NCBI GenBank assembly: GCA_964591855.1
Contig: CAZQAZ010000002.1
Location: 36,851 to 100,850, forward strand
Direction of reading: 5' to 3'
Source of the DNA: Candidatus Woesearchaeota archaeon
GTDB lineage: Archaea > Nanobdellota > Nanobdellia > CAZCWL01 > CAZQAZ01
Length of the DNA stretch: 64,000 nucleotides
The notes under the pieces were generated by a model. The model worked only from the letters and a program-made list of their open reading frames with translations. It searched no databases and was not told where the DNA came from. Both the position numbers and the translations under genes were made by a program. Shown here one piece after another: positions 10 to 57,947 of the stretch (its first letter is position 1; every line of letters begins with the position of its first letter).

Positions 10-2979
10 TTGAGTAGTCTTGGAAGTTTGACATGCGAGACTATAGAGAGATTAGAAAGAGAATCAGGTGTTATAAAGAATGTGGGTGAGGGTTACTTTG
101 TTAGTGAGGAATATAATTCTATGTATAATTACATTCCAGAGTATTGGGGAGAGGTTGATGATAACTTCAAAGGGACACTTGACTTGATGAAAGAAATATT
201 TGAGAAGGGGGTAGATTGGGAAGTAAGTCCAAAGCTAACTGTACCTAGTTACTTGGATTCAAGGTACCTTGAATACGAGGTTACAGCATATTCATTTGAT
301 CAAAATTTCTGTACGAATGGAAGACTAAGTAGTGAATCTAAAGGGTTATATACTCTAAAAGGGCAGTGTAATAGCAAGGATCTCCAGACCGATGAAACTT
401 GTAAGGACCCTTCAGTATATCCAAGCGAAGATGACGAATCCAAATATGCTGGCAGAGCCTTTAGAGATGATCTAAGTAACGATGATAATTACTTCTGTTC
501 AGACTTTACGTGTCATGCATGTTATAGAGGTCCAGAGGACATGTGGTTTAGCGGTGAGGCTAAAGAGTCGGAAAAGTTAAGTTTCGGACCATTCTGTCCT
601 ACAGGTATAAGCGTAAGCAATTCTTATGTTTATGGGATAAATTTAACTCTTAAGCCAGGAGCGTATCCAAAGGAGTGGACACCTGGTTTTGTGGTTTATA
701 TAGAACCTGACTATGATTTAGGTGTGAGTAAGGATGATTTAGAAAATGTACAAGTTAATATCTCAAATGTAGATCCCATAGGCAGGGAAGTAGACCACCC
801 CCTTTGTGAGGAAGTCACAGTATACGGTAAAGATGGCAATATTCTTACTGCAGATGAAGAGGGATGGTATACTGGTGCTAAAAAGGTTGTATGTAAACTA
901 GACTGGACGAAGCATGATGATCCAAGTGATGCGTTATATTACCTCGTATACGGTGGACCGACTAGATTAATCCCTGATAGCATTAATCTAACCTCCTACT
1001 TCCGTATAAAAATGAAAGAAGGAGACAACAGCAAAGCACATGTCAACTTCTTTATAGATATGGGTGTTGTTGGTAGTGATAGTGCATCAAGTCAAGGTGT
1101 GACCCCAGTTCTTCACGAGTATGATTGTTATAATGGGATAGACGATGATGGAGATGGAGCTATAGATCAAGATGACGATGATTGTAAGGAGGTTTGTAAT
1201 AATGGTGAAGACGATGACCACACAGTAAGCTCTAAAAAATTTGTAGAGATAATAAAAGGTTTTTATGAGGATCAAAATGATGAGTGTTACCAAGATTATT
1301 CCTGTGCTTTACAAAAAGCTATACAAAACGATCTTTTAACAGATACAGACCCCACTACTGGTGTTGATAGGGATGATTGGAAGTGTCACGAATATTCATG
1401 TACAGACGGGTCTGACGAGTATGATCCTAATAAATTCCCTGAGTTTTTCAACGACAACGATGGCAATGCGGATGGGAAAGATCCCGACTGTTGGGTTTAT
1501 GCAGACTTTTCTTGCTTAAGAGATTATGATCCAAGCAATCCATATACAACAAGCAAATTAAAAGATGGTGCTGAGGTGTTAAAACTTGTAGCAATAGTCA
1601 AAGTAAAAGATGAAGATGGGAATTGGCACTTTGTTAGAAGTGTTGATCTGGGTACAAGCGTTGTGGAGAACTACATAAACTTTTGTCCAACAAGCGAGAA
1701 TGATGAGGGACTCGTCTCCTTCTCCGGAGCTAATAATGGTTTGGTATCTATAGACTATCTTGGGACTGAGAGAAATTTCAGACCAATGCAGAGCCAGATC
1801 TCTCCTGGACTAGAAAAACCAATTGAAACTCCAGAAATACAGCCCATAAGAGGTCCATTTAGAATAGTACCTATAGAACCTGCTGACAAAGACATTGTTA
1901 CAGGAGATAGTGTTGAACTGAAGGCAGATGTTTTCAATGGGGATTCAAACTATCTTTATAGGTTTTACGTTAAGGACGTAACAAACCCTTCGGAGGGGGT
2001 GGAGACATGTGATGGAAGTGTGAAGAAATTGGAGGACAAACTAGAAGCTAGCTGTACATTTGAGGGCTTGAAAGAAGGACATGTATATGAATGGTATGTA
2101 GGAGCATATGATAAAGATGTGCCTGTGGGAACATTCTCCGATAAAAGTTTATTTAGAGTATCACCTGGTCCTGGAAGTATTTGCTACGATTACAAGGGAA
2201 ATGAGATTCCTTGTTCGTCCTTCGCAACTAAAAAGTATATAGATAGAAATCTTGTTACCCTTCCTTTAAGCTTCAAGTATGGTGCGTCAGTACACAAAAC
2301 GTATGAGTCAGAGGAACCACCAACGCCTAAGAACCCATCTTGCGGTGATTATCCAGTGGTTCAGTACTTCCCTGAAGAAGATAGGGCGAGTGATTTCTTA
2401 TTCGCATATAAGATACCTATTGAATCGTGTACAGGAAGCGACCAATGTAAGAAATGTACAATACGTTGTGGAATAGAGAGTGGAGGTATACTAAGTGAGA
2501 GTAAAGAAAGTGAGATCCTATCAAATGGTGAGGTTTGTAGTTTAGTTTGCTACGAAGAGAATGGTGATGAGGAATGCACAATATGGTGTAATCCATCTGA
2601 ACCGGAAGTGTCATGTTCTTGTAGTAAGAATGTGGCTAATGATCTTTATTATGATTACTACAACAAAGATGGCGTCCAAAGCAACGTTCGATGTAAAGAT
2701 GAGGAAGGCAAAGTTGAGTGTGTTGTGGATTACTTGGACTCGGATACAGGCGAAACAAAGAGGGTTTGCGATGTGATACACGATAAAACATGCGATGAAG
2801 AAAGGTGTGTATCTTGGGATTCAAATGATAATTGTGTGCCCGAGAGCTTTATTGCGTTTGAGAATAGAACTCTTGTTAATATGAGCTTTAAGTTCAAGTT
2901 TGATATAGATTACAATGCTTTGATCTCGCTTTACTCTAATGAAGATAGAGTACCAATGTTAATAGGGAGGGCAATATGA
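10..2979 (+). CDS. Large acidic cysteine-rich secreted protein; 5' end lies outside the window; contains a MopE/thrombospondin-like Ca-binding motif (CYNGIDDDGDGAIDQDDDDC) and an Ig/Fn3-like segment
   Basis: Open frame runs from the window edge for 989 aa. Very high Cys and Asp/Glu content. The CxDxDxDGxxDxDDDC motif was read directly. Its stop overlaps the next start (ATGA). Confidence 0.55.
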   Translation: MSSLGSLTCETIERLERESGVIKNVGEGYFVSEEYNSMYNYIPEYWGEVDDNFKGTLDLMKEIFEKGVDWEVSPKLTVPSYLDSRYLEYEVTAYSFDQNFCTNGRLSSESKGLYTLKGQCNSKDLQTDETCKDPSVYPSEDDESKYAGRAFRDDLSNDDNYFCSDFTCHACYRGPEDMWFSGEAKESEKLSFGPFCPTGISVSNSYVYGINLTLKPGAYPKEWTPGFVVYIEPDYDLGVSKDDLENVQVNISNVDPIGREVDHPLCEEVTVYGKDGNILTADEEGWYTGAKKVVCKLDWTKHDDPSDALYYLVYGGPTRLIPDSINLTSYFRIKMKEGDNSKAHVNFFIDMGVVGSDSASSQGVTPVLHEYDCYNGIDDDGDGAIDQDDDDCKEVCNNGEDDDHTVSSKKFVEIIKGFYEDQNDECYQDYSCALQKAIQNDLLTDTDPTTGVDRDDWKCHEYSCTDGSDEYDPNKFPEFFNDNDGNADGKDPDCWVYADFSCLRDYDPSNPYTTSKLKDGAEVLKLVAIVKVKDEDGNWHFVRSVDLGTSVVENYINFCPTSENDEGLVSFSGANNGLVSIDYLGTERNFRPMQSQISPGLEKPIETPEIQPIRGPFRIVPIEPADKDIVTGDSVELKADVFNGDSNYLYRFYVKDVTNPSEGVETCDGSVKKLEDKLEASCTFEGLKEGHVYEWYVGAYDKDVPVGTFSDKSLFRVSPGPGSICYDYKGNEIPCSSFATKKYIDRNLVTLPLSFKYGASVHKTYESEEPPTPKNPSCGDYPVVQYFPEEDRASDFLFAYKIPIESCTGSDQCKKCTIRCGIESGGILSESKESEILSNGEVCSLVCYEENGDEECTIWCNPSEPEVSCSCSKNVANDLYYDYYNKDGVQSNVRCKDEEGKVECVVDYLDSDTGETKRVCDVIHDKTCDEERCVSWDSNDNCVPESFIAFENRTLVNMSFKFKFDIDYNALISLYSNEDRVPMLIGRAI

Positions 2980-5078
2980 GAAAATTTGTTTATATTGCTG
3001 CTGTTGTATTGATTCTGCTAGTTGTACATCTGTCACTAGGGCTGCAGTACGACCAGAATACTAAGTGTGGAGATAAGGCCTTATCTAACAAGTTTGTTTT
3101 CTCTATTGATAACGGCTGTAAGCCATACGGTCAGAGTGGTAAGTATGTATTTACTTTTAGGGATGGGTTAGCAGCTAGAGGGGCATGTTTTGCAGAGGAT
3201 GGAAGATGTACAGAAAGCAGGTGTGATTTCTCACAACCAGATGGTTCCTTTTGTGCAGTAGGTGTTGGCATAGATAAAGGTGCTACGGAGTATGGTGCTA
3301 TTTGTAGTAGTAAAGATTATGCAGCATGGGACAACTCTTCAGGAGCATGCGTCGAATGTTCAGGAATATATGAGCTTGGAAAGTATGCCGACCAAAAAGA
3401 TATATACTTATCTCCAGAGAGTCCGCGTATAGACTCAAGTATAATGACTTTGCCAAAAGACACTCTTGGTGAGACAAGAAAGACAGTAGAGTCAGGTTGT
3501 GCAATTAGGATGGGATCTCCACTTGATGTTTATTGGTGCGATGAGTACTATCCCTTCTCTGAGGGCGAAGAATTAAACGAAGATCAAATTGACTTTTACC
3601 TTGATAAAGGAATATTTAGGCCAGATTCCTACAGGAAGGTTATTAAAAGTGAAGGTGATGACTTTGAAAAGTATGAATACTCGGATCCTATTCCCTCTAC
3701 AGAACTTCCACCGATAGCAACAGAGTGTTATACAAAGAATAAGTTTGGACAAGGGAAGTGTGCAGCTTACTGTGGTTATGATGGACAGTTGCATGCTATG
3801 GAATGTGTTGACGATAATGAGTGCCCAGACGCATTCCTCATCACCAAAGATCCAGACTCATCGGACTACTTCCCAAGATATGAAATAAGAAGATCTGTGA
3901 GGCACTGTACAAGGAAACTCCCATTTGAATGTGCAGTCGATTCCGAAGAGGATTTGGATGACTCAAGACAGGCATGTGCAGCTTACGGACTTCAATACAT
4001 TAAAGCAGGAGAGGAAAATGTAGGAGAGTATGTAGACACAGATACACTTGGATGTTGTGGAGATGATGTTTATGCAAATGGGAGACCAAAGGAATTTATA
4101 AGGTACAGGGTGGTTGTTGGAGGAAGGACAGATTATAGTGATGTAGCTTGTTGTGGAGGAGAGGATAGATGTGTATACAATGGCAAGTGTTACAAAGAAG
4201 GATCAGCTGTTACCATAGATGGAAGGAAAGCACATTGTTATAACGGTGTTTGGGTGGCAAGAGGCTTAGACTTATATTATGGCTATCCTTCATATGTAGA
4301 ACTTCCAAAGTGTGGAGACTATATATGTGATGTCTCCACAGGTGAGAATTGTTTCACCTGCCCAATAGACTGTAGCTTTGATAGAGAATTCTCAAGTGTG
4401 GAAGTGTTTGACAAGGAAGTAATGCACAAAGGAGATAAGGATTATTATCCAGACGAAGTTGGAAATTACCATAACAATTCCTTTGATCTTACATGGTCCG
4501 ATAAGATAGTATGCGCTCCGTACTCCAACTTAAAATATAAAAGTCTTTATGGCTGGACTAGAGAAAAGACTAATTTCAATAATTCAAGAGTTGTTGTAAA
4601 GTGCGATAGTGACGAAGGTAAGGGTTGCGACGATGAGTTATCCTGCGAAGGACTATTCTGGTTCAAGCAATCCTCTAATGCTTTCTGCGTTAAGGCTTCG
4701 CCTGGGGATAAGCTTGAAGTTGAGTTGGAGGATGAAAATAGTGGTGATCACAGCAAGATCTTCACTGTAGAAGAAATAGATCCAACAGCAACAGACAGGA
4801 CGAAACCATTTGGATGCTTAAACAAAGGGATAGTATGTTTTTATGTTGATGTACTTGGATTTGACTCCCATAATGTGGAAGAAGACTACGTAGATAAAAT
4901 TAAGAGTGTTAAATACATTCAGTATCCTAAATCAGTTAGATCAACATGTGAATATGATTCGGAATGTGAATCTCATAACTGTGCTAAGTTTGGAGTGACA
5001 GGTGTGTGCTGTCCTTATGGTTACAAATTCAACGGAGAGGAGTGTTACCTTCCAGAGCAGTTTGATTACGACTCTTAG
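2976..5078 (+). CDS. Cysteine-rich secreted/membrane-anchored protein (700 aa) with N-terminal hydrophobic signal/anchor
   Basis: ATG overlaps the upstream stop. N-terminus MRKFVYIAAVVLILLVV is hydrophobic. Many paired Cys (CCGG, CxxC). Confidence 0.6.
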   Translation: MRKFVYIAAVVLILLVVHLSLGLQYDQNTKCGDKALSNKFVFSIDNGCKPYGQSGKYVFTFRDGLAARGACFAEDGRCTESRCDFSQPDGSFCAVGVGIDKGATEYGAICSSKDYAAWDNSSGACVECSGIYELGKYADQKDIYLSPESPRIDSSIMTLPKDTLGETRKTVESGCAIRMGSPLDVYWCDEYYPFSEGEELNEDQIDFYLDKGIFRPDSYRKVIKSEGDDFEKYEYSDPIPSTELPPIATECYTKNKFGQGKCAAYCGYDGQLHAMECVDDNECPDAFLITKDPDSSDYFPRYEIRRSVRHCTRKLPFECAVDSEEDLDDSRQACAAYGLQYIKAGEENVGEYVDTDTLGCCGDDVYANGRPKEFIRYRVVVGGRTDYSDVACCGGEDRCVYNGKCYKEGSAVTIDGRKAHCYNGVWVARGLDLYYGYPSYVELPKCGDYICDVSTGENCFTCPIDCSFDREFSSVEVFDKEVMHKGDKDYYPDEVGNYHNNSFDLTWSDKIVCAPYSNLKYKSLYGWTREKTNFNNSRVVVKCDSDEGKGCDDELSCEGLFWFKQSSNAFCVKASPGDKLEVELEDENSGDHSKIFTVEEIDPTATDRTKPFGCLNKGIVCFYVDVLGFDSHNVEEDYVDKIKSVKYIQYPKSVRSTCEYDSECESHNCAKFGVTGVCCPYGYKFNGEECYLPEQFDYDS

Positions 5079-5080
5079 GA

Positions 5081-6325
5081 GTGAATAAAATGGTATCAAG
5101 TAAAGCTGTAGTTTTTGTTGTCTCGACGATAATAGTAGTGATAACCTTGTTTTACTTTGCTTTACCTGTTACATCAATTCTTCATGCTTCGGCAGTCGAA
5201 CTGAACATGAAATCTTACTATGCTTTAACCGATGCTATAAAAGAAGCAAACACAAAAGGCATGGGAATAACAGATAAAATCTACCTTCAGAACAATTATT
5301 TCATAGTCTTTTTCAGGAATAATGAAGTTCTTGATAAACTTGTTAAAGGGGAGATATCGGGGTTTGAGGTCAAAGAGTATGTTTTTGATGGGAGTAGGTC
5401 AGGTTATATGTATTACAGGTCTGGTGTAGATAAGAAAGTGTATGAAGTGGACAGTAAGGCGTTTTATGGTGAAGACGAATTGAACAAGTGCGATATGGAT
5501 GAAAACTGCGTATGTTTGGTGAATTTAGATTACTATGATCCCAGCAACATTAACACGTGGATATACCAAATAGGTACTGAGCAGGGCGGGTTTGGTTGTT
5601 TAGATAGAGTATCCATCCAAGATACAACTATGAATAAATGGGAGACAAATACAGAACCGTACTTTTATGAGGTGAAGCTTTTCAAGCCACTAGGATGTTC
5701 TATCCCACAGAATAATATGAAGGCACCAATTCTGGAGTACAGAGATGGTGAAGGGAAAACACACAGGTTCTTTACGGATTTCTCTACGCTTGCCTTCATG
5801 GATCAATTTATATCCAAAGTTGGGAAGAACTTTACCTTGACTTTCGTTGAGTGTAAGCCTATGAAGGAATTATGTTCATGTGATATCTGTAGTCTATATG
5901 CAGATGAATACTCATGTACAGGAACAGGCTACGAGGAAGGTAGCCACTTTGGATGTGCATGGGATAGTGAGAAAGGAATGTGCTACAATGAGAAAAATTA
6001 TGAAAACTCAACCAACGACTGTTCGTTATGGATAATAAGTGATAAGGTGCGTCAGATATATTCTATCACCGAAAGGTCTAAGTTTGATTACATAATCTTT
6101 AAGAAAGAAGGCTGTGCTTTGCAGTGGTTTGATTCTTCGAAGAGGCCAATTGGCACAGACTCTATCTTTTATGAAGATTATGGAGGAGAGCTATTTGTAG
6201 AGGGGAAGGGCGAGGATAAGGATAAGATTGGAGCATGTGAGCCATGTTTCCAGACTATACCTGTGGAGCAATGTGGGGATCAACAACCTTGCTGTAAAGA
6301 GGAGGCAAAGTGTTCTCCCATATAG
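5081..6325 (+). CDS. Cysteine-rich surface protein (414 aa) with class III-like signal (SSKA/VVFVVSTIIVVITLF) and a C-terminal CCK...C module
   Basis: Third gene of the translationally coupled operon. N-terminal basic stretch followed by a hydrophobic helix. C-terminus is CEPCFQTIPVEQCGDQQPCCKEEAKC. Confidence 0.55.
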   Translation: MNKMVSSKAVVFVVSTIIVVITLFYFALPVTSILHASAVELNMKSYYALTDAIKEANTKGMGITDKIYLQNNYFIVFFRNNEVLDKLVKGEISGFEVKEYVFDGSRSGYMYYRSGVDKKVYEVDSKAFYGEDELNKCDMDENCVCLVNLDYYDPSNINTWIYQIGTEQGGFGCLDRVSIQDTTMNKWETNTEPYFYEVKLFKPLGCSIPQNNMKAPILEYRDGEGKTHRFFTDFSTLAFMDQFISKVGKNFTLTFVECKPMKELCSCDICSLYADEYSCTGTGYEEGSHFGCAWDSEKGMCYNEKNYENSTNDCSLWIISDKVRQIYSITERSKFDYIIFKKEGCALQWFDSSKRPIGTDSIFYEDYGGELFVEGKGEDKDKIGACEPCFQTIPVEQCGDQQPCCKEEAKCSPI

Positions 6326-10608: not shown

Positions 10609-10660
10609 ATTACTGTTAATAAATAGCAATCCGCTTACTGCTTCGGCAGGAGGAAGAAGA

Positions 10661-12159: not shown

Positions 12160-12161
12160 GT

Positions 12162-12467: not shown

Positions 12468-12528
12468 ACACTCTTTTTATTTTCTATTTTATAGCAAAGT
12501 TTTTAGTCTAGGGTATCTTAGTTTTTGT

Positions 12529-13755
12529 ATGGATAAGTTATTATACATAATACTAGATGGTGTTGCTGATAGACCTAATAAGATCTTAGATGGCAAGACT
12601 CCGTTGGAAGCTGCAAGTACACCACACCTTGATTACTTTGCAAGAGAAGGAAAGCTAGGATACGTTTACACTGTTAAAGAAGGTATAGCTCCTGAGTCTG
12701 ATATAGCAGTTTATGCTCTTCTAGGAAATAAGCCTGAGAAGCACACAGGTAGAGGTCCAATTGAAGCACTTGGTTCGGGAATGACTCTACCTAGAAATTA
12801 TCTTGCAATGAGAACAAACTTTGCTACACTTAAAGGAGATGAGATTGTAGATAGGAGGGCAGGTAGAATAATAACTAAGAAAGAAGGGAAAGTTCTTGAG
12901 GATGCAATTAATAGTATAAATTTGTCTGTACCTTTTAAGTTCAAACACACAATTTCGCATAGAGGAGTTGTTGTTTTTGAGGGTGTGTTCTCTCCAAACA
13001 TCTCCAATACAGATCCTGCTTATACGAGGGTTGGAACATTTGGTGTTGTAAATTCAAAGTTCAAGAACAAGGTGCAGGAGTGTAAGCCTCTTGAGAACAG
13101 TCTAGAAGCCAACAATGCAGCTTTGGTTGTTAACGAGTTTGTGTCCAAAGTTAGAGATGTCCTATCGAGATTAGAGCTTAATGAAGAAAGAATACAAAGA
13201 GGCTTGAATCCAGTTAATGGGATTCTTCTTAGAGATGCAGGAGTTTCTTTACCAAAGATGGTTGATCTAAATAAACTTACTGGAAGAAAGTGGGCATCGA
13301 TTGTTGGCATGCCTTTGGAGAATGGTTTATCCATTCTAGCGCACATAAAGCCAATACACTTTTCTTATCCCGATGTTGAGGATTTACACTCTTTCTTGAT
13401 TACGGAGATAAAAGAAGCACTTAAGAACATAAGTAAAAGCTATGATGCATTTTACATTCATATAAAGCAGACTGACATCCCTGGACACGATGGGAATCCT
13501 ATGCTTAAAAAGGAGTTAATAGAGATACTTGATCAAGAGTTCTTCTCAAGGCTTGTTGATCAAGACTTTGATATTTGCGTCACTGCTGATCATGCTACAC
13601 CTTGTGAACTAAAAGCCCATTCCTCAGACCCTGTACCTCTCCTTTTCTTCTCAAGAAGAATGGAGGGAGATTCTGCAAAGAGATTCACAGAAAAGGAAGC
13701 TATGAAAGGTTCCCTGGGCAAATTATATGGTTACCAAGTACCTTTACTGTTCTAA
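12529..13755 (+). CDS. apgM: 2,3-bisphosphoglycerate-independent phosphoglycerate mutase, archaeal type (ApgM)
   Basis: LYIILDGVADRP N-terminal motif. Start placed at the internal ATG (MDKLLYI); the track ORF begins at 12451 and overlaps L12. Confidence 0.8.
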   Translation: MDKLLYIILDGVADRPNKILDGKTPLEAASTPHLDYFAREGKLGYVYTVKEGIAPESDIAVYALLGNKPEKHTGRGPIEALGSGMTLPRNYLAMRTNFATLKGDEIVDRRAGRIITKKEGKVLEDAINSINLSVPFKFKHTISHRGVVVFEGVFSPNISNTDPAYTRVGTFGVVNSKFKNKVQECKPLENSLEANNAALVVNEFVSKVRDVLSRLELNEERIQRGLNPVNGILLRDAGVSLPKMVDLNKLTGRKWASIVGMPLENGLSILAHIKPIHFSYPDVEDLHSFLITEIKEALKNISKSYDAFYIHIKQTDIPGHDGNPMLKKELIEILDQEFFSRLVDQDFDICVTADHATPCELKAHSSDPVPLLFFSRRMEGDSAKRFTEKEAMKGSLGKLYGYQVPLLF

Positions 13756-30056: not shown

Positions 30057-30302
30057 ATGGAGACAATTATATGTAACACAAAGCTTAAACAGCTTAGAGG
30101 TCTTATGTTTAGATTCAAAAAAGTTAGAGCTGTCTTCCCGGCAATACCTGTCCACACTTGGTTTGTCTTCTACCCAATAAAGTTAAAGTGGCTAGACAAA
30201 AACAAGAATTTAATCAAGGAAGAAATAGCAAAACCCTTCTCACTTAGGGTCTTCCACCCCCCAAAGAACGCATCCCATCTAATCGAGGAACCTCCTAATT
30301 AA
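30057..30302 (+). CDS. DUF192/COG1430-like small protein
   Basis: LRGLMFR and WFVFYPIKLKWLD motifs resemble DUF192. The match is weak. Confidence 0.4.
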   Translation: METIICNTKLKQLRGLMFRFKKVRAVFPAIPVHTWFVFYPIKLKWLDKNKNLIKEEIAKPFSLRVFHPPKNASHLIEEPPN

Positions 30303-30664
30303 CTGCAGGTAGATGCTGAGCAGTTTAGTCGACAAGATATTCCCGAAGGGTCCGTTAGTCTACATATTGTTAACTCTTTACATGTCATAGATTTACCACC
30401 GACAGTTACGGGCTCTGTACAGAAACTTATACCTACAGGTATACAATCACATTCCCCATCTTCATCATCATCTACTAATGATGTTATTAGCTCTTGGTCT
30501 TTGGCGCATACATTCTTACAGTGTGCTATTGCTTGAGCTGAAGATATACCTGCACCACCACCTTTTTGTGCGGATGTGAAGAATAGAAGTATAGCAGCAA
30601 GAGTAATAACTGCTAACGCCAAGACAATTATAAACTCAATTGGAATGGATACCCCTTTTTTCAA
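30299..30664 (-). CDS. Class III signal peptide (type IV pilin-like) cysteine-rich protein, paralog 1
   Basis: Pilin-like N-terminus KKG/VSIPIEFIIVLALAVITLAAILLFF followed by HCKNVCAKDQE...CKELTICRLTDPSGISC. The track ORF extends to 30742 (TTG) and overlaps the upstream gene, so start is placed at the in-frame TTG giving MKKGV. Confidence 0.6.
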   Translation of the reverse strand: MKKGVSIPIEFIIVLALAVITLAAILLFFTSAQKGGGAGISSAQAIAHCKNVCAKDQELITSLVDDDEDGECDCIPVGISFCTEPVTVGGKSMTCKELTICRLTDPSGISCRLNCSASTCS

Positions 30665-30705
30665 GTTACCACCTAAGTCTAAGAGACATTTGTTCTTTTT
30701 AAGCT

Positions 30706-31107
30706 TTAAGTTTGGCCAGACTGTCCACAAGAGGCCACACAAGTTCCTCCAAAGTTGTCTACTAGTTTACATGTTGTAATTTCATAGCATGGCGTCTTTT
30801 TGCCTTCAATGTAATAATGTCCATTACAGAACTTTGATGCAAGATTACCATACTCCTTACTACTATCTATACATCCTTCGTATCTAAGCTCCCCAGAATC
30901 TAATCTTTCGGTAAGATTTATCCCAGCAGGTAGAGCAGATCTGTCTTGCATACATAAGTTCAAACAAAAGGAAGTAGCCTTAATTGAAGAAGTTCCACTT
31001 TCTCCTTTAGCAGATTTTGAGATAAGCATAACGGCTGCTGCTAAGACCATTAGACCTATCCCAACTGCTACTAGAAAATTCATCATAGCACTTCCTTTCT
31101 TTGGCAT
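30706..31107 (-). CDS. Class III signal peptide (type IV pilin-like) cysteine-rich protein, paralog 2
   Basis: MPKKG/SAMMNFLVAVGIGLMVLAAAV followed by FCLNLCMQDRS...CYEITTCKLVDNFGGTC. Confidence 0.7.
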   Translation of the reverse strand: MPKKGSAMMNFLVAVGIGLMVLAAAVMLISKSAKGESGTSSIKATSFCLNLCMQDRSALPAGINLTERLDSGELRYEGCIDSSKEYGNLASKFCNGHYYIEGKKTPCYEITTCKLVDNFGGTCVASCGQSGQT

Positions 31108-31145
31108 AATTATCTAAAGAATGCTGAGTATATAAACTTTACAAT

Positions 31146-31706
31146 CTAACAGTTCACCCATGAGGCTAAGCAGCCCTCTTTTGGCAATTTACAGCATGCG
31201 CCAATGTTTAAGCATTTTTGTTTGTTAAGGATAGTGCTGTGGTAGTCTGGTCCTATGTAATTCAATTTACATAGTCTCTCCATTTTTCTTGTACCAACTT
31301 CACATGTATCACCTATACAACTAGGTATTCCACCATCTAATACACATGCAATTTCACATGCTTTTTTCATATCAACAGTTAGATTCGTAATCTCACAAGT
31401 CTCACCAAATGAATCCTTGATTACACAGCTTGTTAGGTCAAAGCATGTTACAGTTTCTCCACCTATTCTAAACTTAAGTTTCGCGAACTCTGATTCTTGA
31501 GACGTAACGCATACACCTTCTATGCTAACACTATCTAACCTCGAGTCGTTAAGACATGCAGCTTCACACATCTTTATAGCAGTGGTCCTTGAGACAGTTC
31601 CTATCCCAAGCAGTCCTACATTCCTAAGCATGATAAGAGCGACCAATATAACAGCTACTATTATAACAATTGTTATAAGCATGGTGAATTGTATTCCTCT
31701 TTTCAT
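31146..31706 (-). CDS. Class III signal peptide (type IV pilin-like) cysteine-rich protein, paralog 3 (two Cys modules)
   Basis: MKRG/IQFTMLITIVIIVAV. Module A is KMCEAACLNDS...TCFDLTSCVIKDSFGETC. Module B is KACEIACVLDGG...CCKLPKEGCLASWVNC. The track start 31715 (MVFM) lies 9 nt upstream. Confidence 0.7.
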   Translation of the reverse strand: MKRGIQFTMLITIVIIVAVILVALIMLRNVGLLGIGTVSRTTAIKMCEAACLNDSRLDSVSIEGVCVTSQESEFAKLKFRIGGETVTCFDLTSCVIKDSFGETCEITNLTVDMKKACEIACVLDGGIPSCIGDTCEVGTRKMERLCKLNYIGPDYHSTILNKQKCLNIGACCKLPKEGCLASWVNC

Positions 31707-32230
31707 GAACACCAACTCTTACTAAAGTATTTCCCATCTCTTATACACTTCTTCCCACCAACCGTCTCGCAGTCTGTTTTCAAAACAGTCCAAAGCTCAC
31801 ATAGCTTTGGGAACCTATCAGGTTCTTGGTCTGAGAGAAGACCATAACTTCCACCGTCTATCTCGCACGCCTTCTGACATGTTTTAATCTTGCTGAATGT
31901 AATGGGAGATACAGCACAGATGCCATACTCTGTTGACATCCTACACTCTGTTAAGTTGTAACAATTAACTTTTCCCATACCTTCCACATTTAGGTATGTG
32001 TGAATAAAAGAATAGTCATCACTATATGCACATGAGCCTTCTAGGTTAACGGCTCCATGTATAGAGTCCTCTGAACATAGATCATCGCATTTTGATATCG
32101 CACTAAGTTGTGTTATTGTTGCTGCACTTGGCTTCGTAAGGGATCCAGATAAATAAAGACCAACGAGAAGAACCATAACCCCCACGGCGACTGCTAGCAA
32201 AAAGCTAAATCCTGCTTGCAAAGCTTTCAT
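31703..32230 (-). CDS. Class III signal peptide (type IV pilin-like) cysteine-rich protein, paralog 4
   Basis: MKALQAG/FSFLLAVAVGVMVLLV followed by KCDDLCSEDS...NCYNLTECRMSTEYGIC...CQKACEIDGG. Confidence 0.7.
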   Translation of the reverse strand: MKALQAGFSFLLAVAVGVMVLLVGLYLSGSLTKPSAATITQLSAISKCDDLCSEDSIHGAVNLEGSCAYSDDYSFIHTYLNVEGMGKVNCYNLTECRMSTEYGICAVSPITFSKIKTCQKACEIDGGSYGLLSDQEPDRFPKLCELWTVLKTDCETVGGKKCIRDGKYFSKSWCS

Positions 32231-35259: not shown

Positions 35260-38200
35260 TTAACACTGTAGCCATGAAGCTATGCAGTTGTATTCTGGGA
35301 GCTTACAGCAGTAGCCGCTTGCCTTACACTTCTCTAGGTTGTCTTGATTTGTTTGGAAGGTTGGCCCTATCTTGTTAAGCTCACAAACTGTAGGGGTTGG
35401 ACTTTCACCCTCTTCGAAGTTCCACACGTCACTTCCACAGCTATTCAAGCTCCCACAAGTGACAGGCTCTCCACCATCTTTCAAACAAGCCTCCACACAA
35501 GCTTTTCCAAAATCCGTTGAATCCCTGCTTATGTAACAATCACCCAAACTGCAGGTTAGCACTTGATCACAATATACAGTTGTTCCTTCGACATTGAAAC
35601 TTAAGCTTGCAAAGTCTGAACTATTAAAGTAACACACCCCATTGATGTTAACAAACTCTTTGTTTGTGTCATTCATACAAGCTTCCTCACACATCCTCTG
35701 AATCTCAGGATGTGTGGATATTATCTTCTCCACATTTGTATGTTTGATTAATGTGTTACAATCGTACACGTTATTGGATCCAAGATCGTTAGGGAGTATA
35801 TCACCTTTTGTATCCAGTAGACACACATTTCCTTCCATCTTGTTATTGTTGAAAGTCACAGGAGTATCAAACACAAACCCATATACATTGTTCACGAAGT
35901 TGTTACTGTCAAACACACCACTGCATTCGCTACATAGCACACCATAGTAATTAGAGTAGAATGTATTACCTACCACGTTTACATTTCCACCTATAGCACT
36001 TATGCCAGAGTCTGAGTTCGAGAATGAAGATGATTTGATATTTCCAACACCAGAGACTCTGACATAATTTAACCCAGTTATATCGGAGTCTTCGATTGTT
36101 ATATTACCATAAGATTCAATCTTAAAGTCCTTATCTGCATAATGGATTTTAACCCCCTTCAGCGTGAGGTTTCCATAGTTCACCAAACTACATGGAGATG
36201 TACAGTTGATGTACAAGTTAACATTCTCTAAAGTAAGATTTCCATGCACAGTTGTATTCTTAAGGAGCACAACACCTAAGTTCTTAACATTACAGTTGTC
36301 GGATTTCTCAACTATCCAATCTTTGTACGTTGAAGGATAGCACCTATTCTCTTCGAGAACAGCAATAATCTTTTTTGGAGAATCAAATCTAACTTTAAGT
36401 GTGGTGTAGTTATAATGTCTCCAGTAATTTAAGACCTGAGCACCTGTTACGTTGACTGTGTAATCTCCCACATCAATTAAGTTAAAGTCCTTGTCGAGAT
36501 AATACGCCTGTCCACACCATGTTTTAACTGGCGAAGAAATGTATCCTGCATCACATTCTAAAATCCTTGTGGTTGGATAGGGTCTTATCTTATTTCCATT
36601 TGTGTCTTTAATTTCTATCTCTATTATGCTTGTTGATGCAATTAAACCTTTAGTATTGCTATCAGGCAAGAGTGTGTTTTTCGAACTCAAGCTATTAAAG
36701 AAAGCTTCGATATCACTCCCAGATATGTCTGAGTTGACGAGCATTATTAAGAATGAACCTCCTTTTAAAGTGTTCCCTTCTATGTCAACATTGTTTTCCG
36801 AAGTAAGTCTTATAGGATTGTTATAGTACTTGTAGTCCTTTACGGTTACAGAGTTGTGTTTAATGGAACCTGAGGAGTTGGATACAGAGATCCATCCAAC
36901 ATTCATATCATTTGATGTTAAGTTTATTGTAGAGTTTGTTATTGCTAAACCAATTGATTGATCTACATCATTGTTGCTAAACTCCACCGTTGAGTTGTAA
37001 GAGTAGAGAGGATAGACTACACCAACTATGTTGCTCTCATTAATCTTAGCTTTTGAGTTAAGCACATAAAATCCATAGTATGTTTTGTAACTTCTACCGC
37101 CAGAGAATGTGAAGTTGGTGTTTGATATGTTCACACCCTTTTCATCGGATATGTAAACACCGCCATACATTCTCTTATATGGACCCGACATGAATCTATT
37201 CTTATAGAATGTGACATTCTTGTTATTTATGAGGTAGACCTCAAATATGTAACTTGATGTATTTGTGTGGAAGGTGTTATTTGTTATGTTGATGTATGAG
37301 TTTGTTGAATAGATCCCCCTCGCTCCGAAAAATGTGGAGTTGGAGACAGTTATGTTAGAGCCTCTTGCGAAGAGTCCATAATAACTCTTGTCCACCACAT
37401 TTTTAAGTGTCAAGTTAGACTCAACCGAAACAACACTTACTCCCTTGTTGTTGAAGAAAGCGTCCTTAATTTCCCCACTTGAGTTGAAGTAGTAAAGAAG
37501 CTTATTGACCTTACCAAAATCTCCAAATGATCCATAAAAGTCTTGCTTGGTGTTGAGATTGTATAGAAGTATCTTAACATTGTCTGCTTTGTTACCCCTT
37601 CCATATACTTTGTTGGTGTTGTGGATTCCTAACTTATAGTCGTATGAGAACGAGTTACCGAAGAATAATGCTTCTCCGTAATTGTAGACGAAGGAATATG
37701 CATGATCCCATGTGTTACTAATAAACCTTGTCCCTACAGCATAGTTTTTAACAGGGATGTATGCGTTTGTGAATACATTCTTTAATAGAACAGTGGGCTC
37801 CACTATGTTTAAAGCCCTCCTTCCAAAGAAAGTGTTTCCAACGAGTTTAATCTTCTCGCCCACATCAAAGTCTTTGTCTAGTTCTATGTTATTCCCTTTT
37901 AGAACGATATGATTACTAAGTGACAGTTGGCTGGTTTTGATACTGTTTCCTCTTATCACAGCCTTACTTGTTCTCACATCTAACTCTGAGTTGTGAAGTA
38001 TTGATTTTTGGATGTTCAATGAGGATCCTTCTAAAGCAGTTATGTATGCCTTACTAACAAACGAGCTGGCTATTAGTATTTGACCACCCTGGTTAGCTTG
38101 TATGGTCTTTGAGTTTCCATTAAGGTAAGAGTTTATTAAAACAAGCGCTCCACCGTCCTTCACCACAATAGGATACTTTAAGTCTATGTCTTTACCATAA

Positions 38201-39273
38201 CAAACCTCCACGTCTTTAATCTCCCAAGTTCTATCTTCTGGTATTCTACAATTGGATATGTCGTACACTCTATATTCGTTGTTTGTGTAGTTTGCATCGC
38301 CTTGTGTGGAGTTTACCACAAGTCTCAATGGAAGAATAGAACCCATATTGAAAGCATCGTATTTTGTGTTGAGCATTATAGTGCCTGCAGTCCCAACTGG
38401 GAGTGTTCCTTTTGTATACTCCAGAAGCTTTTGGTTTCTTTTGTTGAACAAGGTTAAGTTATAGTCCTCAGCGTCTACGAGTCCAAGATTATAAACTGAA
38501 GTCTGAAGAGTTCCTTCTAGAGGAGTGTAGTATAACACGTATGGCTTAATTTCTGCTTGGGAACCCATATCAAATTTAATTGATATGGTATTCGAATTAA
38601 AGAGATGTGAGAAGTCATAAGGTTCAGAATCATTTGAGGCACCATTCTCTATAATAGCTTCGTATGTTCCATCGGCTCCAAAGTCTACTCTTATTTTCCC
38701 AGAGTAGCTTGTTGTCAAGTTTGCGAAGTAGATGACAGCTCCTTGTGGTAAAGTAATATGTACTACGTCCCCTGGATTAATAGTGTTTCCCTCATTAAAA
38801 GTGTTGGTTACGTTGATCTCATTAAGAGTGAAGTTAAACTCAGCACCAAGTATTGTTTGGTCTGGAAGATAAACGAGTGAACAGTCTTGTGGACACGTTT
38901 CTTCTGTTTCATTCCCATTACATATTCCATCTCCACAGTATGCCCCAACACATGTTCTCTTGGATACGACACAAGTACGTCCAGAACTATCGGTCAATGT
39001 ACATTTAACGTAGTTATAACAGTCCTTCGAACAGAAGTTTGGAGCCAGACCTTGGCTACAGAACCCCCTATCAGATGTAACGGTTCTGACGATATTATTG
39101 TCCTCTTCACATAACTCCCTACATTCTTTCTCAAGGCTAACTATACTTTGAACTTGCTCCGTTCCACCTTTAGATCTGATAACCAAGAAGTATACTGCTG
39201 CAAGAACGGCAACTGCTATTATTACAACAGCTAGAATCTCTACGCTGCTAGCCCTCTTGTAAGCTTTGTACAT
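35260..39273 (-). CDS. Giant (1337 aa) class III signal peptide surface protein/adhesin candidate: pilin-like N-terminus, Cys module A, long N-x-S/T-rich beta-helix-like repeat region, C-terminal Cys modules A and B
   Basis: N-terminus MYKAYKRA/SSVEILAVVIIAVAVLAAV. Then EKECRELCEEDNN...CSQGLAPNFCS. Central region is rich in N, S, T and Y with dozens of NxS/T sequons (NITNNTFHTNTSSY...). C-terminus MCEEACMNDTN...YCDQVLTCSLGDC and KACVEACLKDGG...CCKLPEYNCIASWLQC. Confidence 0.75.
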   Translation of the reverse strand: MYKAYKRASSVEILAVVIIAVAVLAAVYFLVIRSKGGTEQVQSIVSLEKECRELCEEDNNIVRTVTSDRGFCSQGLAPNFCSKDCYNYVKCTLTDSSGRTCVVSKRTCVGAYCGDGICNGNETEETCPQDCSLVYLPDQTILGAEFNFTLNEINVTNTFNEGNTINPGDVVHITLPQGAVIYFANLTTSYSGKIRVDFGADGTYEAIIENGASNDSEPYDFSHLFNSNTISIKFDMGSQAEIKPYVLYYTPLEGTLQTSVYNLGLVDAEDYNLTLFNKRNQKLLEYTKGTLPVGTAGTIMLNTKYDAFNMGSILPLRLVVNSTQGDANYTNNEYRVYDISNCRIPEDRTWEIKDVEVCYGKDIDLKYPIVVKDGGALVLINSYLNGNSKTIQANQGGQILIASSFVSKAYITALEGSSLNIQKSILHNSELDVRTSKAVIRGNSIKTSQLSLSNHIVLKGNNIELDKDFDVGEKIKLVGNTFFGRRALNIVEPTVLLKNVFTNAYIPVKNYAVGTRFISNTWDHAYSFVYNYGEALFFGNSFSYDYKLGIHNTNKVYGRGNKADNVKILLYNLNTKQDFYGSFGDFGKVNKLLYYFNSSGEIKDAFFNNKGVSVVSVESNLTLKNVVDKSYYGLFARGSNITVSNSTFFGARGIYSTNSYINITNNTFHTNTSSYIFEVYLINNKNVTFYKNRFMSGPYKRMYGGVYISDEKGVNISNTNFTFSGGRSYKTYYGFYVLNSKAKINESNIVGVVYPLYSYNSTVEFSNNDVDQSIGLAITNSTINLTSNDMNVGWISVSNSSGSIKHNSVTVKDYKYYNNPIRLTSENNVDIEGNTLKGGSFLIMLVNSDISGSDIEAFFNSLSSKNTLLPDSNTKGLIASTSIIEIEIKDTNGNKIRPYPTTRILECDAGYISSPVKTWCGQAYYLDKDFNLIDVGDYTVNVTGAQVLNYWRHYNYTTLKVRFDSPKKIIAVLEENRCYPSTYKDWIVEKSDNCNVKNLGVVLLKNTTVHGNLTLENVNLYINCTSPCSLVNYGNLTLKGVKIHYADKDFKIESYGNITIEDSDITGLNYVRVSGVGNIKSSSFSNSDSGISAIGGNVNVVGNTFYSNYYGVLCSECSGVFDSNNFVNNVYGFVFDTPVTFNNNKMEGNVCLLDTKGDILPNDLGSNNVYDCNTLIKHTNVEKIISTHPEIQRMCEEACMNDTNKEFVNINGVCYFNSSDFASLSFNVEGTTVYCDQVLTCSLGDCYISRDSTDFGKACVEACLKDGGEPVTCGSLNSCGSDVWNFEEGESPTPTVCELNKIGPTFQTNQDNLEKCKASGYCCKLPEYNCIASWLQC

Positions 39274-39315
39274 GAAAAATTAAAGAAGTAATACTTAATA
39301 AAACTAATTAAGCAA

Positions 39316-39666
39316 CTAGCAGCTATTAGAGGTCACAACACAAGTTCTCCCATCTTCAAATGTTAGAACACATTTAGTTATGTCGTAACATCTCAAGGTT
39401 CTGCCTGCTATCTTAAATGAACCGCTACAGAAGTTTGGAGCTAGACCCTGTCCACAAGACCCATCTTCATATATCTCTCCACTAATAAGAAGCTGGTTGT
39501 CCTTAGCACAGGCAGCTTCACATGAGGACTTAGCATCGGATAGGGTTATAGACTCCCCAGATTGTGCTTTCCCTTTGAAAACTAGGTAAAGTCCAGCTAC
39601 CGCCACCATAGCACTTAATATGATAACGACTATCAAGTTTATCGAACTTTGTCCTCTCATCCACAT
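39316..39666 (-). CDS. Class III signal peptide (type IV pilin-like) cysteine-rich protein, paralog 6
   Basis: MWMRG/QSSINLIVVIILSAMVAVAG followed by SSCEAACAKDNQ...CGQGLAPNFCSG...CYDITKCVLTFEDGRTCVV. Closely matches the N-module of the giant protein. Confidence 0.7.
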   Translation of the reverse strand: MWMRGQSSINLIVVIILSAMVAVAGLYLVFKGKAQSGESITLSDAKSSCEAACAKDNQLLISGEIYEDGSCGQGLAPNFCSGSFKIAGRTLRCYDITKCVLTFEDGRTCVVTSNSC

Positions 39667-40076
39667 CTCACTCCTATAGCTTCTAATCTATCAACGACAC
39701 CAAGCTGTTCGGCATAATTACATATCTCTTCTTCATCGTAGCTTGAGAGCTCACCAAAGTAACATATCCCCCAAGGTGTTTCAGCTGAACATTGGACTAT
39801 GTCATAACAGTGTTTGGTCTTGCCACTTAACTTGAACTCAAGCTTTCCAAAATCTGACTTTGGATTTGTATAGCATTGTCCATCTATGCTTGTTATGTTT
39901 TTGTATTGGTCAAGCAGACAAAAATCGCTGCATTTTGATTTTAAAGATGCTCTTGAGAGGGAGCCGAGATTGGAGATGTAACCTTTATTGAATATGAAGA
40001 TGACTATTAGTATAACTGAGAGAGCAAGTAAAGCTGCTATGACATAGTTTATTCCCAGTGAAACACCTTTTTTCAT
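39657..40076 (-). CDS. Class III signal peptide (type IV pilin-like) cysteine-rich protein, paralog 7
   Basis: MKKG/VSLGINYVIAALLALSVILIV followed by KCSDFCLLDQ...HCYDIVQCSAETPWGIC. Confidence 0.7.
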   Translation of the reverse strand: MKKGVSLGINYVIAALLALSVILIVIFIFNKGYISNLGSLSRASLKSKCSDFCLLDQYKNITSIDGQCYTNPKSDFGKLEFKLSGKTKHCYDIVQCSAETPWGICYFGELSSYDEEEICNYAEQLGVVDRLEAIGVRCG

Positions 40077-40118
40077 AAATAATAAATGATTTATTTGTTA
40101 ATAAAGTTTTATTTTAGT

Positions 40119-55922: not shown

Positions 55923-57947
55923 TTAGATTGTTTTCAAATCAAAGAACTTCCTGTTGAAATACTCTTCTCTCCTTCCAGGGTTCCACCTATTGATTGGTCT
56001 TATGTAGCCTGAGATCTTGGAATAAACTTCAACTTCCCCTTCGCACTTTGGACACCTTTCAACATAGCCTTTAAAATAACCGTCTTTTCTGCAAATACTG
56101 AATGTTGGGCTTGTTGTCATGTAAGGAATCTTGTAATCTTTCAAGATCTTTCTAGTAGCGTCTCTTATCATGTTTACATCAGGTTTTTCTTTTAGATACA
56201 AGTCAAACATGTTTCCTCCAGTGTATAACTTTTGTATTTCACTCTGAATTGTAAGCTCTTCTTTTAGATTGTGTGTGAAATAAACAGGAAGGTTGGCAGC
56301 TGTTGTGTAATAAGGTTCTTTCTTTCCGGACGTTATTATGTCAGGATATTTCTCTTTATCAAGGAGTGCAAGTCTATAGCTTGCACTTTCAGCAGGTGTT
56401 GCTTCTAGTAAAAATCTATGTCCACTCTCCTCTTCGAACTCTTTTAGTCTTCTTGCTATGAACTCCATAACTTTCTTGGCAAACTTTAGGCCTTCTTTTG
56501 TGTTAAGCCCTTCTCCCAAGAAGTTAAGTAGGCTTTCGTGCATACCAACAAATCCTACTGTAGAGAAATGATTGTCCCAATACCTTTCTTTCTTTCCCCT
56601 TAAACCCCTAAGGTAGAATCTCGAGTATGGATAAAGTCCTTGCTTTGTGAAATTCTCCATCACTTTCCTTTTAATATCCAAAGCTTCTTTTGCCAACTCA
56701 AGCATTTTATCAAGCTTGTTGAAGAAAGTACTTTCATCTTTTGAAACGTAACCTATTCTCGGAAGGTTTATCGTAACAGCCCCCACAGATCCAGAGTTTG
56801 GACGTGACCAATGTACGCCCATGACTCTTTCTTCACACCCTTCTTTAATAGGTATTGTGAAGTTAGCGAAGTGGGGGTTTCCATACTTTGACACCACTTC
56901 CCAAAGTTCTTCGTTGTCCCAGTTGAAGTCTTTGTTCACTTTTATTGTAGGTATTGGGAATGTAAAAGCTCTTCCTTTGCTGTCACCTTCTTTAAGGACT
57001 TCCATCAATGCTTTGTTAAGCATGTCAACTTCTTTCTGGAAATCTTCGTACTTTTTATCTTCTTCTATACCACCAATGATAACATTCTTATCTTTTAGCT
57101 CATTCGGAACTCTAACATCCAAGGAAATATTTGTGAATGGTGTTTGGAACCCAACTCTTGTTGGAACATTCATATTGAACATGAACTCCTGCATGGCCTG
57201 TTTAACTTCTTTGTAACTTAGGTCATCATGTCTTATGAAGGGTGCTAGAAGTGTGTCGAAGTTAGAGAAAGCTTGGGCTCCAGCAGCTTCTCCTTGTAGT
57301 GTATAGAAGAAGTTAACCACTTGTCCAAGGGCTGTTCTGAAGTGTTTTGCAGGTCTGGATTGCACTTTTCCTCTCACACCTGTGAAACCATGCTTTAACA
57401 AGTCCATTAGATTCCATCCAACTCTATATGCTCCAAAGACAGATAGAGAATGAATATGTAAGTCCCCCAGAGTGTGAGCAGCTCCAACTTCATTTGGGTA
57501 TATCTTATCTCTCCAGTATCTTGATACAAGTTTTGAAGATAGGTAAAAATTTAGCCCTTGAAGAGAGAATGTTAGGTTGGAGTTCTCTCTTAACATCCAG
57601 TCAGCCCTTTGTAGATAAGCATCAACTATGTCAATGTAATCAAACATGTATTTTAAGTTCCTTATGTCACTACGTTGTTTTCTGTATAGGATGTAAGCTT
57701 TTGCGACTTTGGATAAACCTTCTTCTATCAACACCTTCTCGACAAGGTTCTGTATATCTTCAACTCCAGGAATTCTATCCTTAAACTTCTCCTTAGCCAG
57801 ATCGACAACTTTATCTGCTAGCTTGTCAGCCAGCTCTTCGTTTCCCTCCCCTACAGCTCTAAGTGCTTTCCATATTGCATTAGAAATCTTCTCCTTTTGA
57901 AAATCTACAACTCTTCCATCCCTCTTTCTTATTTTGTCTAGAACCAT
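55923..57947 (-). CDS. nrdD: Anaerobic ribonucleoside-triphosphate reductase NrdD (class III)
   Basis: N-terminal ATP-cone, a C-terminal Cys cluster (CPKCEG) and the glycyl radical motif KISGYIRP. Confidence 0.85.
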   Translation of the reverse strand: MVLDKIRKRDGRVVDFQKEKISNAIWKALRAVGEGNEELADKLADKVVDLAKEKFKDRIPGVEDIQNLVEKVLIEEGLSKVAKAYILYRKQRSDIRNLKYMFDYIDIVDAYLQRADWMLRENSNLTFSLQGLNFYLSSKLVSRYWRDKIYPNEVGAAHTLGDLHIHSLSVFGAYRVGWNLMDLLKHGFTGVRGKVQSRPAKHFRTALGQVVNFFYTLQGEAAGAQAFSNFDTLLAPFIRHDDLSYKEVKQAMQEFMFNMNVPTRVGFQTPFTNISLDVRVPNELKDKNVIIGGIEEDKKYEDFQKEVDMLNKALMEVLKEGDSKGRAFTFPIPTIKVNKDFNWDNEELWEVVSKYGNPHFANFTIPIKEGCEERVMGVHWSRPNSGSVGAVTINLPRIGYVSKDESTFFNKLDKMLELAKEALDIKRKVMENFTKQGLYPYSRFYLRGLRGKKERYWDNHFSTVGFVGMHESLLNFLGEGLNTKEGLKFAKKVMEFIARRLKEFEEESGHRFLLEATPAESASYRLALLDKEKYPDIITSGKKEPYYTTAANLPVYFTHNLKEELTIQSEIQKLYTGGNMFDLYLKEKPDVNMIRDATRKILKDYKIPYMTTSPTFSICRKDGYFKGYVERCPKCEGEVEVYSKISGYIRPINRWNPGRREEYFNRKFFDLKTI

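Follow-up and report, generated by a model that had tools for sequence, protein, structure and literature searches.

What do the small cysteine-rich genes beside a gene for a giant secreted protein encode, and do the two belong together? The question is raised by a locus of a Candidatus Woesearchaeota archaeon (assembly GCA_964591855.1, contig CAZQAZ010000002.1), of which we analyzed a stretch of 64,000 nucleotides (nt), positions 36,851 to 100,850, hereafter the window. At 35-40 kb of the window, the (-) strand carries, in 5' to 3' order, a gene for a protein of 139 amino acids (aa) (39657..40076), an open reading frame (ORF) of 116 aa (39316..39666) and the giant gene (35260..39273), whose 1337-aa product combines a pilin-like N-terminus and a Cys module with a long ectodomain and a C-terminal pair of modules. 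A first-pass annotation had described the small genes as pilin-like paralogs located downstream of the giant gene. The three ORFs are present, the peptides quoted from them are exact and the small ORFs do share 10 nt; on the coding (-) strand, however, both small genes lie upstream (5') of the giant gene. On public contigs that are nearly identical, the 116-aa ORF is called from the next ATG, 39660 (MRGQSS..., 114 aa). The protein is probably translated from this ATG, with a leader MRG preceding QSS, and the overlap with the 139-aa gene is then an ATGA of 4 nt. Each small protein holds one Cys module with 8 Cys, and the 139-aa protein opens with an MKKG leader and a 19-residue uncharged hydrophobic helix and ends in an acidic tail. 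The analysis leads us to regard it as fairly probable that such proteins are type IV pilin-like subunits, specific to DPANN archaea and stapled by disulfides, and that the giant protein is their conserved modular pilin-adhesin partner.

The small proteins are related to the giant by more than their cysteines. BLASTP aligned the 116-aa protein with giant aa 1-109 (34% identity over 110 aa, E=8e-18), showing that the N-terminal module of the giant is homologous to stand-alone pilin-like proteins of the same organism, and returned a second, weaker match at giant aa 1187-1243. The best match of the 139-aa protein was the C-terminal module of the giant (E=4e-9), and the two small proteins matched each other at E=6e-11. 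The 116-aa protein and the giant N-terminus agree fully in two patches, QGLAPNFCS (9 aa) and GRTCVV (6 aa), so the shared core seen at first pass is real, while its description as a near-identical N-module does not hold at 34% overall. When the hydrophobic N-termini were removed and the non-Cys residues shuffled 1000 times with every Cys fixed, the local score of 143 for the 116-aa protein and the giant N-module stood against 34.5 +/- 8.4 for the shuffles (maximum 70; z=12.9), and the 139-aa protein and the giant C-module gave z=12.4. The similarity thus extends beyond Cys spacing, the point on which the first-pass annotation had made its claim depend, and Cys spacing alone was ruled out as its source. 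These scores, with the E-values above, bear out the proposed paralogy: the small genes are true paralogs that share a Cys-framework module with the giant protein.

A motif scan followed by a hidden Markov model (HMM) of the module gave eight module copies in seven proteins of the window, two of them in the giant; the seven proteins agree with the earlier count, and the nine copies do not. The giant begins with a class III signal-like leader, MYKAYKRA, and a hydrophobic helix (aa 1-32; 39178..39273, (-)), followed by its N-terminal Cys module (aa 44-109; 38947..39144, (-)), which is of the 116-type and lacks the F-x-I-x-G hairpin insert. Its second module lies far inside the protein (aa 1189-1261; 35491..35709, (-)), is of the 139/186-type without a transmembrane (TM) helix, and runs into a C-terminal extension, module B (aa 1262-1337; 35263..35490, (-)), with the pattern CxxxCxxDGG ... 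CCKLP..C.ASW..C. The four remaining genes form a second, co-directional cluster (30299-32230, (-)) and encode paralogs of 175 aa (31703..32230, (-); module plus extension, 12 Cys), 186 aa (31146..31706, (-); module plus module B, 16 Cys; its ATG at 31706 overlaps the 175-aa gene by an ATGA), 133 aa (30706..31107, (-); 8 Cys) and about 121 aa (30299..30664, (-)). The last length applies if translation starts at TTG 30664 (MKKGVSIPIEF...), which has GGTGG ahead of it; when started at 30742, as in the mechanical ORF and in public gene calls, the protein has 147 aa, including an N-terminal extension that is not pilin-like, and its gene shares 37 nt with the 133-aa gene. The TTG gives a family-typical N-terminus, and the deposited start is probably wrong. 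An extension of the module B type, opening with a second CxxxCxxDGG, is common to the giant, the 175-aa and the 186-aa proteins, and the C-terminal 151 aa of the giant align with the whole mature 186-aa protein (40% identity, E=4e-32). The giant is therefore flanked by two different paralog modules, a 116-type with a hydrophobic N-terminus and a 186-type without one. Judged from their sequences, the 139-aa and 114/116-aa proteins, the four paralogs at 30.3-32.2 kb and the giant N-terminus would constitute one pilin-like family, whose members are paralogs. Comparison with a second strain (L001, GCA_053993735.1) gave ratios of nonsynonymous to synonymous polymorphism (pN/pS) of 0.03-0.25 for the seven Cys-module genes (giant gene 0.20, 139-aa gene 0.08) against 0.03-0.12 for neighboring housekeeping genes; the seven genes are under purifying selection, and non-coding ORFs were ruled out on this ground.

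How widely is the module distributed? Pfam and NCBIfam gave nothing relevant for any of the seven proteins (E<=1), and a word-indexed search with the alignment of the eight copies recovered same-species copies only. A HMMER scan of 1.84 billion representative proteins, in turn, defined a family of 74 representative clusters at E<=1e-3, of which 27 reach <=1e-10; with few exceptions the proteins measure 100-145 aa. A second search gave 58 members; the names given were 'hypothetical protein' and no Pfam domains had been precomputed. Named members came exclusively from Candidatus Woesearchaeota, Nanoarchaeia, Nanoarchaeota or DPANN archaea, so that the family is so far DPANN-restricted and unannotated. 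The gene content of the window is itself archaeal (arcTGT, archaeal-type GluRS, aIF2-gamma, Kae1, TFE, Alba). Family proteins share one layout: an N-terminus, an uncharged stretch of 20-27 residues, a Gly/Ser-rich segment and a Cys head. The dominant N-terminus is M-K-A-Q-G-L-P-x-N-F-I-V, and M-[KR]-K-G-[IV]-S-L-P-[IV]-E-F-I-I also occurs. All seven window proteins begin with a basic leader of 3-8 residues ending in [KR]-[GA] (K-x-x-x-x-G in the 175-aa protein), the leaders being MKKG, MRG, MYKAYKRA, MKALQAG, MKRG, MPKKG and (TTG)MKKG, followed by an uncharged run of 19-27 residues. A basic leader [KR]-x(0-2)-[GA] directly followed by an uncharged hydrophobic stretch of about 20 residues, as expected of archaeal type IV pilin-like proteins with class III signal peptides, was found in all seven, and 116 of the 122 family members have a K/R leader and an uncharged run of at least 18 residues.

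The head of about 75 aa carries the Cys pattern CxxxC ... FC ... G..C.....C ... G..C...C, in which four Cys are invariant across 71 sequences. The AlphaFold2 (AF2) model of the 114-aa protein, built from the alignment of these 71 sequences, is confident, with a predicted local distance difference test score (pLDDT) of 89.4, and consists of a helix at 5-33, a short break, a helix at 40-57 on which the CxxxC sits, and four short strands, a predicted outline resembling a lollipop of helix plus sheet. In the model the head is probably a helix whose invariant CxxxC is disulfide-stapled to a four-stranded sheet bearing two more invariant Cys. A profile search of the family against the PDB gave nothing significant, the best hit being an archaeal 'flagellin' (8fk7_A, E=1.1) that matched the N-terminal helix only, and the head is without a detectable solved structural relative. 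An anaerobic class III ribonucleotide reductase, NrdD, is encoded in the window (55923-57947, (-)), from which the organism is probably an anaerobe. Of 119 small members, 114 contain an even number of Cys, mostly 6 or 8, which, as far as counts can tell, implies extracellular disulfides despite the probably anaerobic life of the organism; a thiol-disulfide oxidoreductase was not seen in the window.

The strongest evidence for a pilin-like nature is the genomic context of the relatives. On three long contigs, independent of one another (L006/L007, which is part of a Nanoarchaeia contig of 956 kb; L020; and L021), family members lie within one co-directional operon that opens with a gene for a T2SSE ATPase (PF00437; 766-769 aa) and continues with a platform-like protein of 684-688 aa and about 9 TM segments, several mid-size proteins, 3-4 tiny ORFs, tandem arrays of proteins of about 100-140 aa including 2-5 family members, and mid-size secreted proteins. 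A fourth genome (L004/5/8) has a like layout, with the platform-like homolog at the edge. In the relatives, family genes are thus linked to an ATPase of the T2SSE/VirB11 type and a platform protein of the TadC/ArlJ type. The 'pilin-like' label given at first pass is upheld by these operons, by the leader and hydrophobic helix in all seven proteins and by the helix plus small beta-sheet of the AF2 model. The tiny ORFs (L006 7668-8368; L004 7213-7693; L020 8316-8838; L021 7917-8569) stand 3-4 in tandem and encode 48-66 aa with a class-III-like leader, a single hydrophobic helix and nothing else; by sequence they look like head-less pilins of the Epd/Flp type and may be the actual major subunits. 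In L020, a pair of an ABC ATPase and a MacB/FtsX-type permease follows directly on the Cys-module genes (10433-13537).

The window itself opens, at 10..6325 (+), with genes that appear to close a type IV filament-like operon; they encode three large proteins, rich in Cys and either secreted or anchored, and then Alba-FKBP-FtsZ. The three signal-bearing ORFs encode 1259 aa (989 aa of them inside the window), 700 aa and 411 aa, have no Pfam match and contain 41-49, 44 and 20 Cys, and the Alba-FKBP-FtsZ order is the one that closes the L006 operon. A public contig (L017, 1-11236) that is identical over the window start reaches 5 kb further upstream and carries there co-directional genes with class-III-like MRK[SA]Q... 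N-termini, two of which (197 and 611 aa) are homologous to tail genes of the L006 and L004 operons. The gene order suggests that the window very probably begins inside the tail of the filament operon of this organism, with the cognate machinery probably upstream; for the window genes, this tail is indirect evidence of linkage to such machinery. The seven Cys-module genes form satellite clusters, 24-34 kb from this tail.

Between its modules, the giant protein has little that can be recognized. Rich in Asn and Ser (N 10.8%), it has 40 Cys and 32 sequons of the NxS/T type, and gave no Pfam, NCBIfam or PDB sequence match at E<=1; a word-indexed search with it found nothing beyond the species, and a scan of genome contigs returned no relative. 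Autocorrelation peaked at a lag of 20-21, and the region of aa ~360-860 (36694..38196, (-)) consists of repeats of the xNx[IV]xxNxF type with a periodicity of about 20-21 residues, probably a beta-solenoid; the ectodomain as a whole would then be an adhesin-like beta-solenoid. Behind the N-terminal module lies a generic Cys-rich linker motif, CGDGICNGNETEETCPQDC (aa 113-131; 38881..38937, (-)). The motif is widespread as a stand-alone linker module, often in tandem, in unrelated large secreted proteins of metagenomes (L011-L016), and a scan of metagenome contigs with giant-type N-modules returned only unrelated proteins with CGDGIC...C..DC, none of which matched the family HMM. Fusion of the pilin-like module to big ectodomains is recurrent, as far as the sequences of other DPANN archaea indicate: P0029 and P0030 (791 and 804 aa) begin with this N-module, which a poly-Gly linker connects to domains of the Ig-like or CarboxypepD_reg type.

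We propose that a class III (prepilin) signal peptidase would remove the leader and that a T2SSE-ATPase/platform machine, encoded elsewhere in the genome, would pull the subunits out of the membrane to build a type IV filament, where the small Cys-module proteins might serve as minor pilins. The giant would be a modular pilin anchored by its pilin module in or at the end of the filament, possibly at the tip, and would display a glycosylated beta-repeat ectodomain ending in a TM-less paralog head and its extension. Its likely function would be adhesion of the episymbiotic archaeon to surfaces or host cells.

How old is the link between the small gene and the giant gene? The first-pass annotation had taken the GLAPNFCS...GRTCVV core as a sign that the 116-aa gene and the giant gene had arisen by recent duplication or had recently exchanged domains; we consider such a recent event, gene conversion included, very unlikely. 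It is true that the identical patches of 9 and 6 aa are real and that the 116-aa protein and the giant N-module are mutually closest paralogs within the window, with their clades as sisters in a neighbor-joining (NJ) tree of the modules (no bootstrap, short alignment). Overall identity, however, is just 34%, and even the patches match at 22 of 27 and 13 of 18 nt, including Ser AGC/TCG and Arg AGA/CGT codon switches. Such synonymous and six-fold-codon differences within identical peptides point to constraint at the protein level and led us to reject recent gene conversion. In the NJ tree both copies have orthologs of their own elsewhere: the 116-aa protein pairs with P0024 of another metagenome, and the giant N-module with P0054 and P0048. 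Other window copies, too, pair with orthologs from outside: 139/P0017, 175/P0014 with P0013, 133/P0018 with P0023, and 121/P0012 with P0020; the giant C-module pairs with the 186-aa protein. APNFC is a motif of the subfamily, found again in P0018, P0048 and P0054, with variants in P0019 (APSFC) and P0023 (AKNFC). The pair is moreover already adjacent in a different species, where an 809-bp contig (L009) carries the P0024 gene, 41 nt, and then an ORF that begins like the giant (...CKQGLAPNFCSRGC...CVGDYCGDGIC) and is a further ortholog of its N-module, at about 45-49% identity. Sequence comparison thus indicates that the duplication is old and that the pair of small gene and giant gene is old and conserved; adjacency kept in another species argues for a functional link. 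Of the giant-type relatives, P0054 is a stand-alone protein of 107 aa, and P0048 (L010 317-904), from another metagenome, is an ortholog called at only 195 aa, its last residues being ...DYPDFNVDEL. This may reflect truncation of the allele, a mistake in sequencing or assembly, or a protein that is short by nature.

Several results weigh, or may weigh, against the assignment to type IV pilins. The cleavage pattern of the FlaFind type, which we take to be [KRDE][GA][ALIFQMVED][ILMVTAS]x3 and to derive from other lineages, fits one of the seven window proteins and 5 of the 122 members; the sole match in the window is the 114-aa protein (RGQSSI), and the dominant KAQGLP fails at +2/+4. Pilin_N (PF07790), Class_IIIsignal (PF04021), Arch_flagellin (PF01917) and the NCBIfam equivalents had no match in the seven proteins at E<=1, and among 71 members Pilin_N was matched by 3 (best E 0.0064) and Arch_flagellin by 2 (best 2.4e-4), always N-terminally and below the gathering score. 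The Gly/Ser linker breaks the helix and would suit a simple membrane tether too, and the scan of window ORFs brought up no T2SSE ATPase, TadC-like platform protein or A24 peptidase. As to the giant, neither Pfam and NCBIfam nor the PDB revealed an adhesive domain such as vWA or a lectin in its ectodomain, and a single-sequence AF2 model of aa 138-1337, regular short strands and all-beta, is unusable at a pLDDT of 39.8.

Instead of building filaments, the proteins might remain at the cell surface on a membrane tether or in the manner of a bindosome, with the helix as a signal-anchor, or processed by the class III peptidase without polymerisation, and the Gly/Ser linker holding the small disulfide-rich head, or in the giant the large glycosylated ectodomain, as an envelope or host-contact protein. 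The Gly/Ser-rich break between helices 5-33 and 40-57, the lack of any structural or HMM match to pilins and the fact that the window genes do not adjoin any machinery agree with this, as do the class III signals on non-pilin sugar-binding proteins of the Sulfolobus bindosome (PMC4858521). Against it, members stand in tandem inside an ATPase/platform operon among class-III-signal ORFs in four independent genomes, the leader motif, in which [KR][GA] precedes Q or a hydrophobic residue, is conserved more strongly than a plain anchor requires, and a small head of ~75 aa is typical of filament subunits; a tether is possible to our mind and less likely than a filament. A role that has nothing to do with filaments would be that of toxins or bacteriocin-like peptides, secreted or anchored and stabilised by their cysteines; the small size of the proteins, their even numbers of Cys and a CxxxC helix with a probable staple to strands would suit it. 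Such a helix recalls the cysteine-stabilised alpha/beta peptides, and 4 of 71 members have weak YxzE-like matches (best E 0.013). A toxin is nonetheless barely credible here: no immunity or export genes lie nearby, the very long hydrophobic N-terminus is unlike a Sec or bacteriocin leader, the module is also fused to ectodomains of 800-1337 aa, and the operons of the relatives encode filament machinery. Pilin-like subunits with a modular pilin-adhesin partner therefore remain our preferred reading.

The layout at 35-40 kb bears on how these genes may be expressed. The whole block is co-directional, is closed at 35251 by a convergent radical-SAM gene and is bordered on the other side by a divergent methyltransferase gene that begins ~42 nt from the 139-aa gene. 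A TATA-box-like TTTATTAA box lies at -29..-22 of the ATG of the 139-aa gene (40098..40105, (-)) as a putative promoter, and a second TTTATTAA box at -29..-22 of the ATG of the giant gene (39295..39302, (-)) as a possible separate one; the window has 13 copies of the octamer, where 8.9 would be expected. The 175-aa gene and the 133-aa gene are preceded by similar TATA-like boxes, TAATTAAA and TTTATATA, at roughly the offset of TTTATTAA. The position -29..-22 agrees with that of archaeal TATA boxes on mRNAs with a short leader or none, and the boxes suggest leaderless or short-leader transcripts from separate promoters, with two putative transcription units, [139-114] and [giant]. Because the giant gene has a TATA-like box of its own, a single operon of the 139-aa, 114-aa and giant genes is not established.

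Much of this has counterparts in systems already described. Standalone pilin loci apart from the machinery, large adhesin candidates with class III signals and Cys-rich pilins are on record for archaea (PMC4858521; bioRxiv 10.64898/2026.04.22.720090). Like archaeal type IV pilins, the family has a basic leader ending in G/A, a hydrophobic helix of at least ~20 residues and a small beta-containing head, and the +1 residue would be Q in the 114-aa protein, as it probably is in the majority with KA before QGLP. Unlike them, it has no Pilin_N, Class_IIIsignal, Arch_flagellin or TIGR match, and its head, as modelled, is a helix plus four strands with four invariant Cys. In type IV filament (TFF) loci of the 'system 1'/Epd type, a main pilin without a globular head is accompanied by many further class-III-signal pilins and by standalone loci (bioRxiv 10.64898/2026.04.22.720090; PMC4858521). 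The DPANN family resembles these loci, which occur in methanogens, Thermococcales and DPANN, in its many paralogs per genome and in the ATPase and platform operons of its relatives with their tiny head-less ORFs; it differs in that the relatives have a single platform-like gene of ~685 aa, not two. A census could not assign cognate pilins to one nanoarchaeal ATPase clade (PMC4858521). Conserved Cys are thought to stabilise extracellular pilins of Thermoproteales too, and the Pyrobaculum arsenaticum pilin has disulfide bonds (bioRxiv 10.64898/2026.04.22.720090, PMC4858521), but those pilins belong to another sequence family and another TFF subsystem of thermophilic crenarchaea, whereas the organism here is a DPANN archaeon and probably anaerobic. 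Substrates of the Sulfolobus bindosome likewise have a class-III-type N-terminus on proteins that do not necessarily form pili; they are, however, solute-binding proteins of ~500 aa or more with recognisable domains, in contrast to heads of ~75 aa in tandem arrays.

For the giant, the closest parallels are bacterial modular pilins with adhesive C-terminal modules (PMC8179133), and by analogy an N-terminal pilin-type module on a huge ectodomain fits the logic of a modular pilin or adhesin. Streptococcus sanguinis PilB, a pilin module with a vWA domain (PMC8179133), likewise joins a pilin-like module to a bulky extra part, a design by which filaments gain adhesiveness; the giant is archaeal, its extra part measures ~1200 aa and no adhesive domain is recognisable in it. 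PilY1-type tip adhesins, and the large class III signal proteins noted as adhesin or minor pilin in archaeal type IV pilus loci (PMC4858521), are comparable in that a large secreted protein is coupled to small pilin-like genes and the pair is kept across species, whereas the giant lacks a DUF2341/PilY1 domain and itself bears a pilin-type N-terminus; a search of Pfam (E<=1) gave neither a PilY1 beta-propeller nor DUF2341. At its far end, unlike modular pilins, the giant repeats the head of a paralog, here TM-less and followed by the extension. To our knowledge, no such terminal arrangement has been described for modular pilins. A bolder reading is that these are DPANN-specific filament subunits with a new, minimal helix/sheet head stapled by disulfides and that the giant is a double-ended modular pilin: its pilin module would plug one end into the filament, and the paralog head plus extension at the far end could dock to pilin heads of its own or another filament or mimic them on the host. 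We rate this elaboration as decidedly improbable; if true, it would give episymbionts a self-recognising tether for attachment to their hosts.

The overall logic of pilins and modular pilins is already known, and the present case is not a new kind of system. New are an unannotated family, a head without a detectable structural relative and the unusual double-module architecture of the giant. With neither a Pfam or NCBIfam model nor a solved relative of the head at hand, a family model and one structure from experiment, or a map of the filament, would improve the annotation of many DPANN genomes. DPANN archaea are ultra-small, mostly uncultivated and thought to live attached to hosts, and their mode of attachment is largely unknown. 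The family offers concrete and widely distributed candidate pilins, with 74 clusters, several copies per genome and members in filament operons, and the conserved pair of small subunit and giant protein is an obvious candidate adhesin for the attachment of these organisms.

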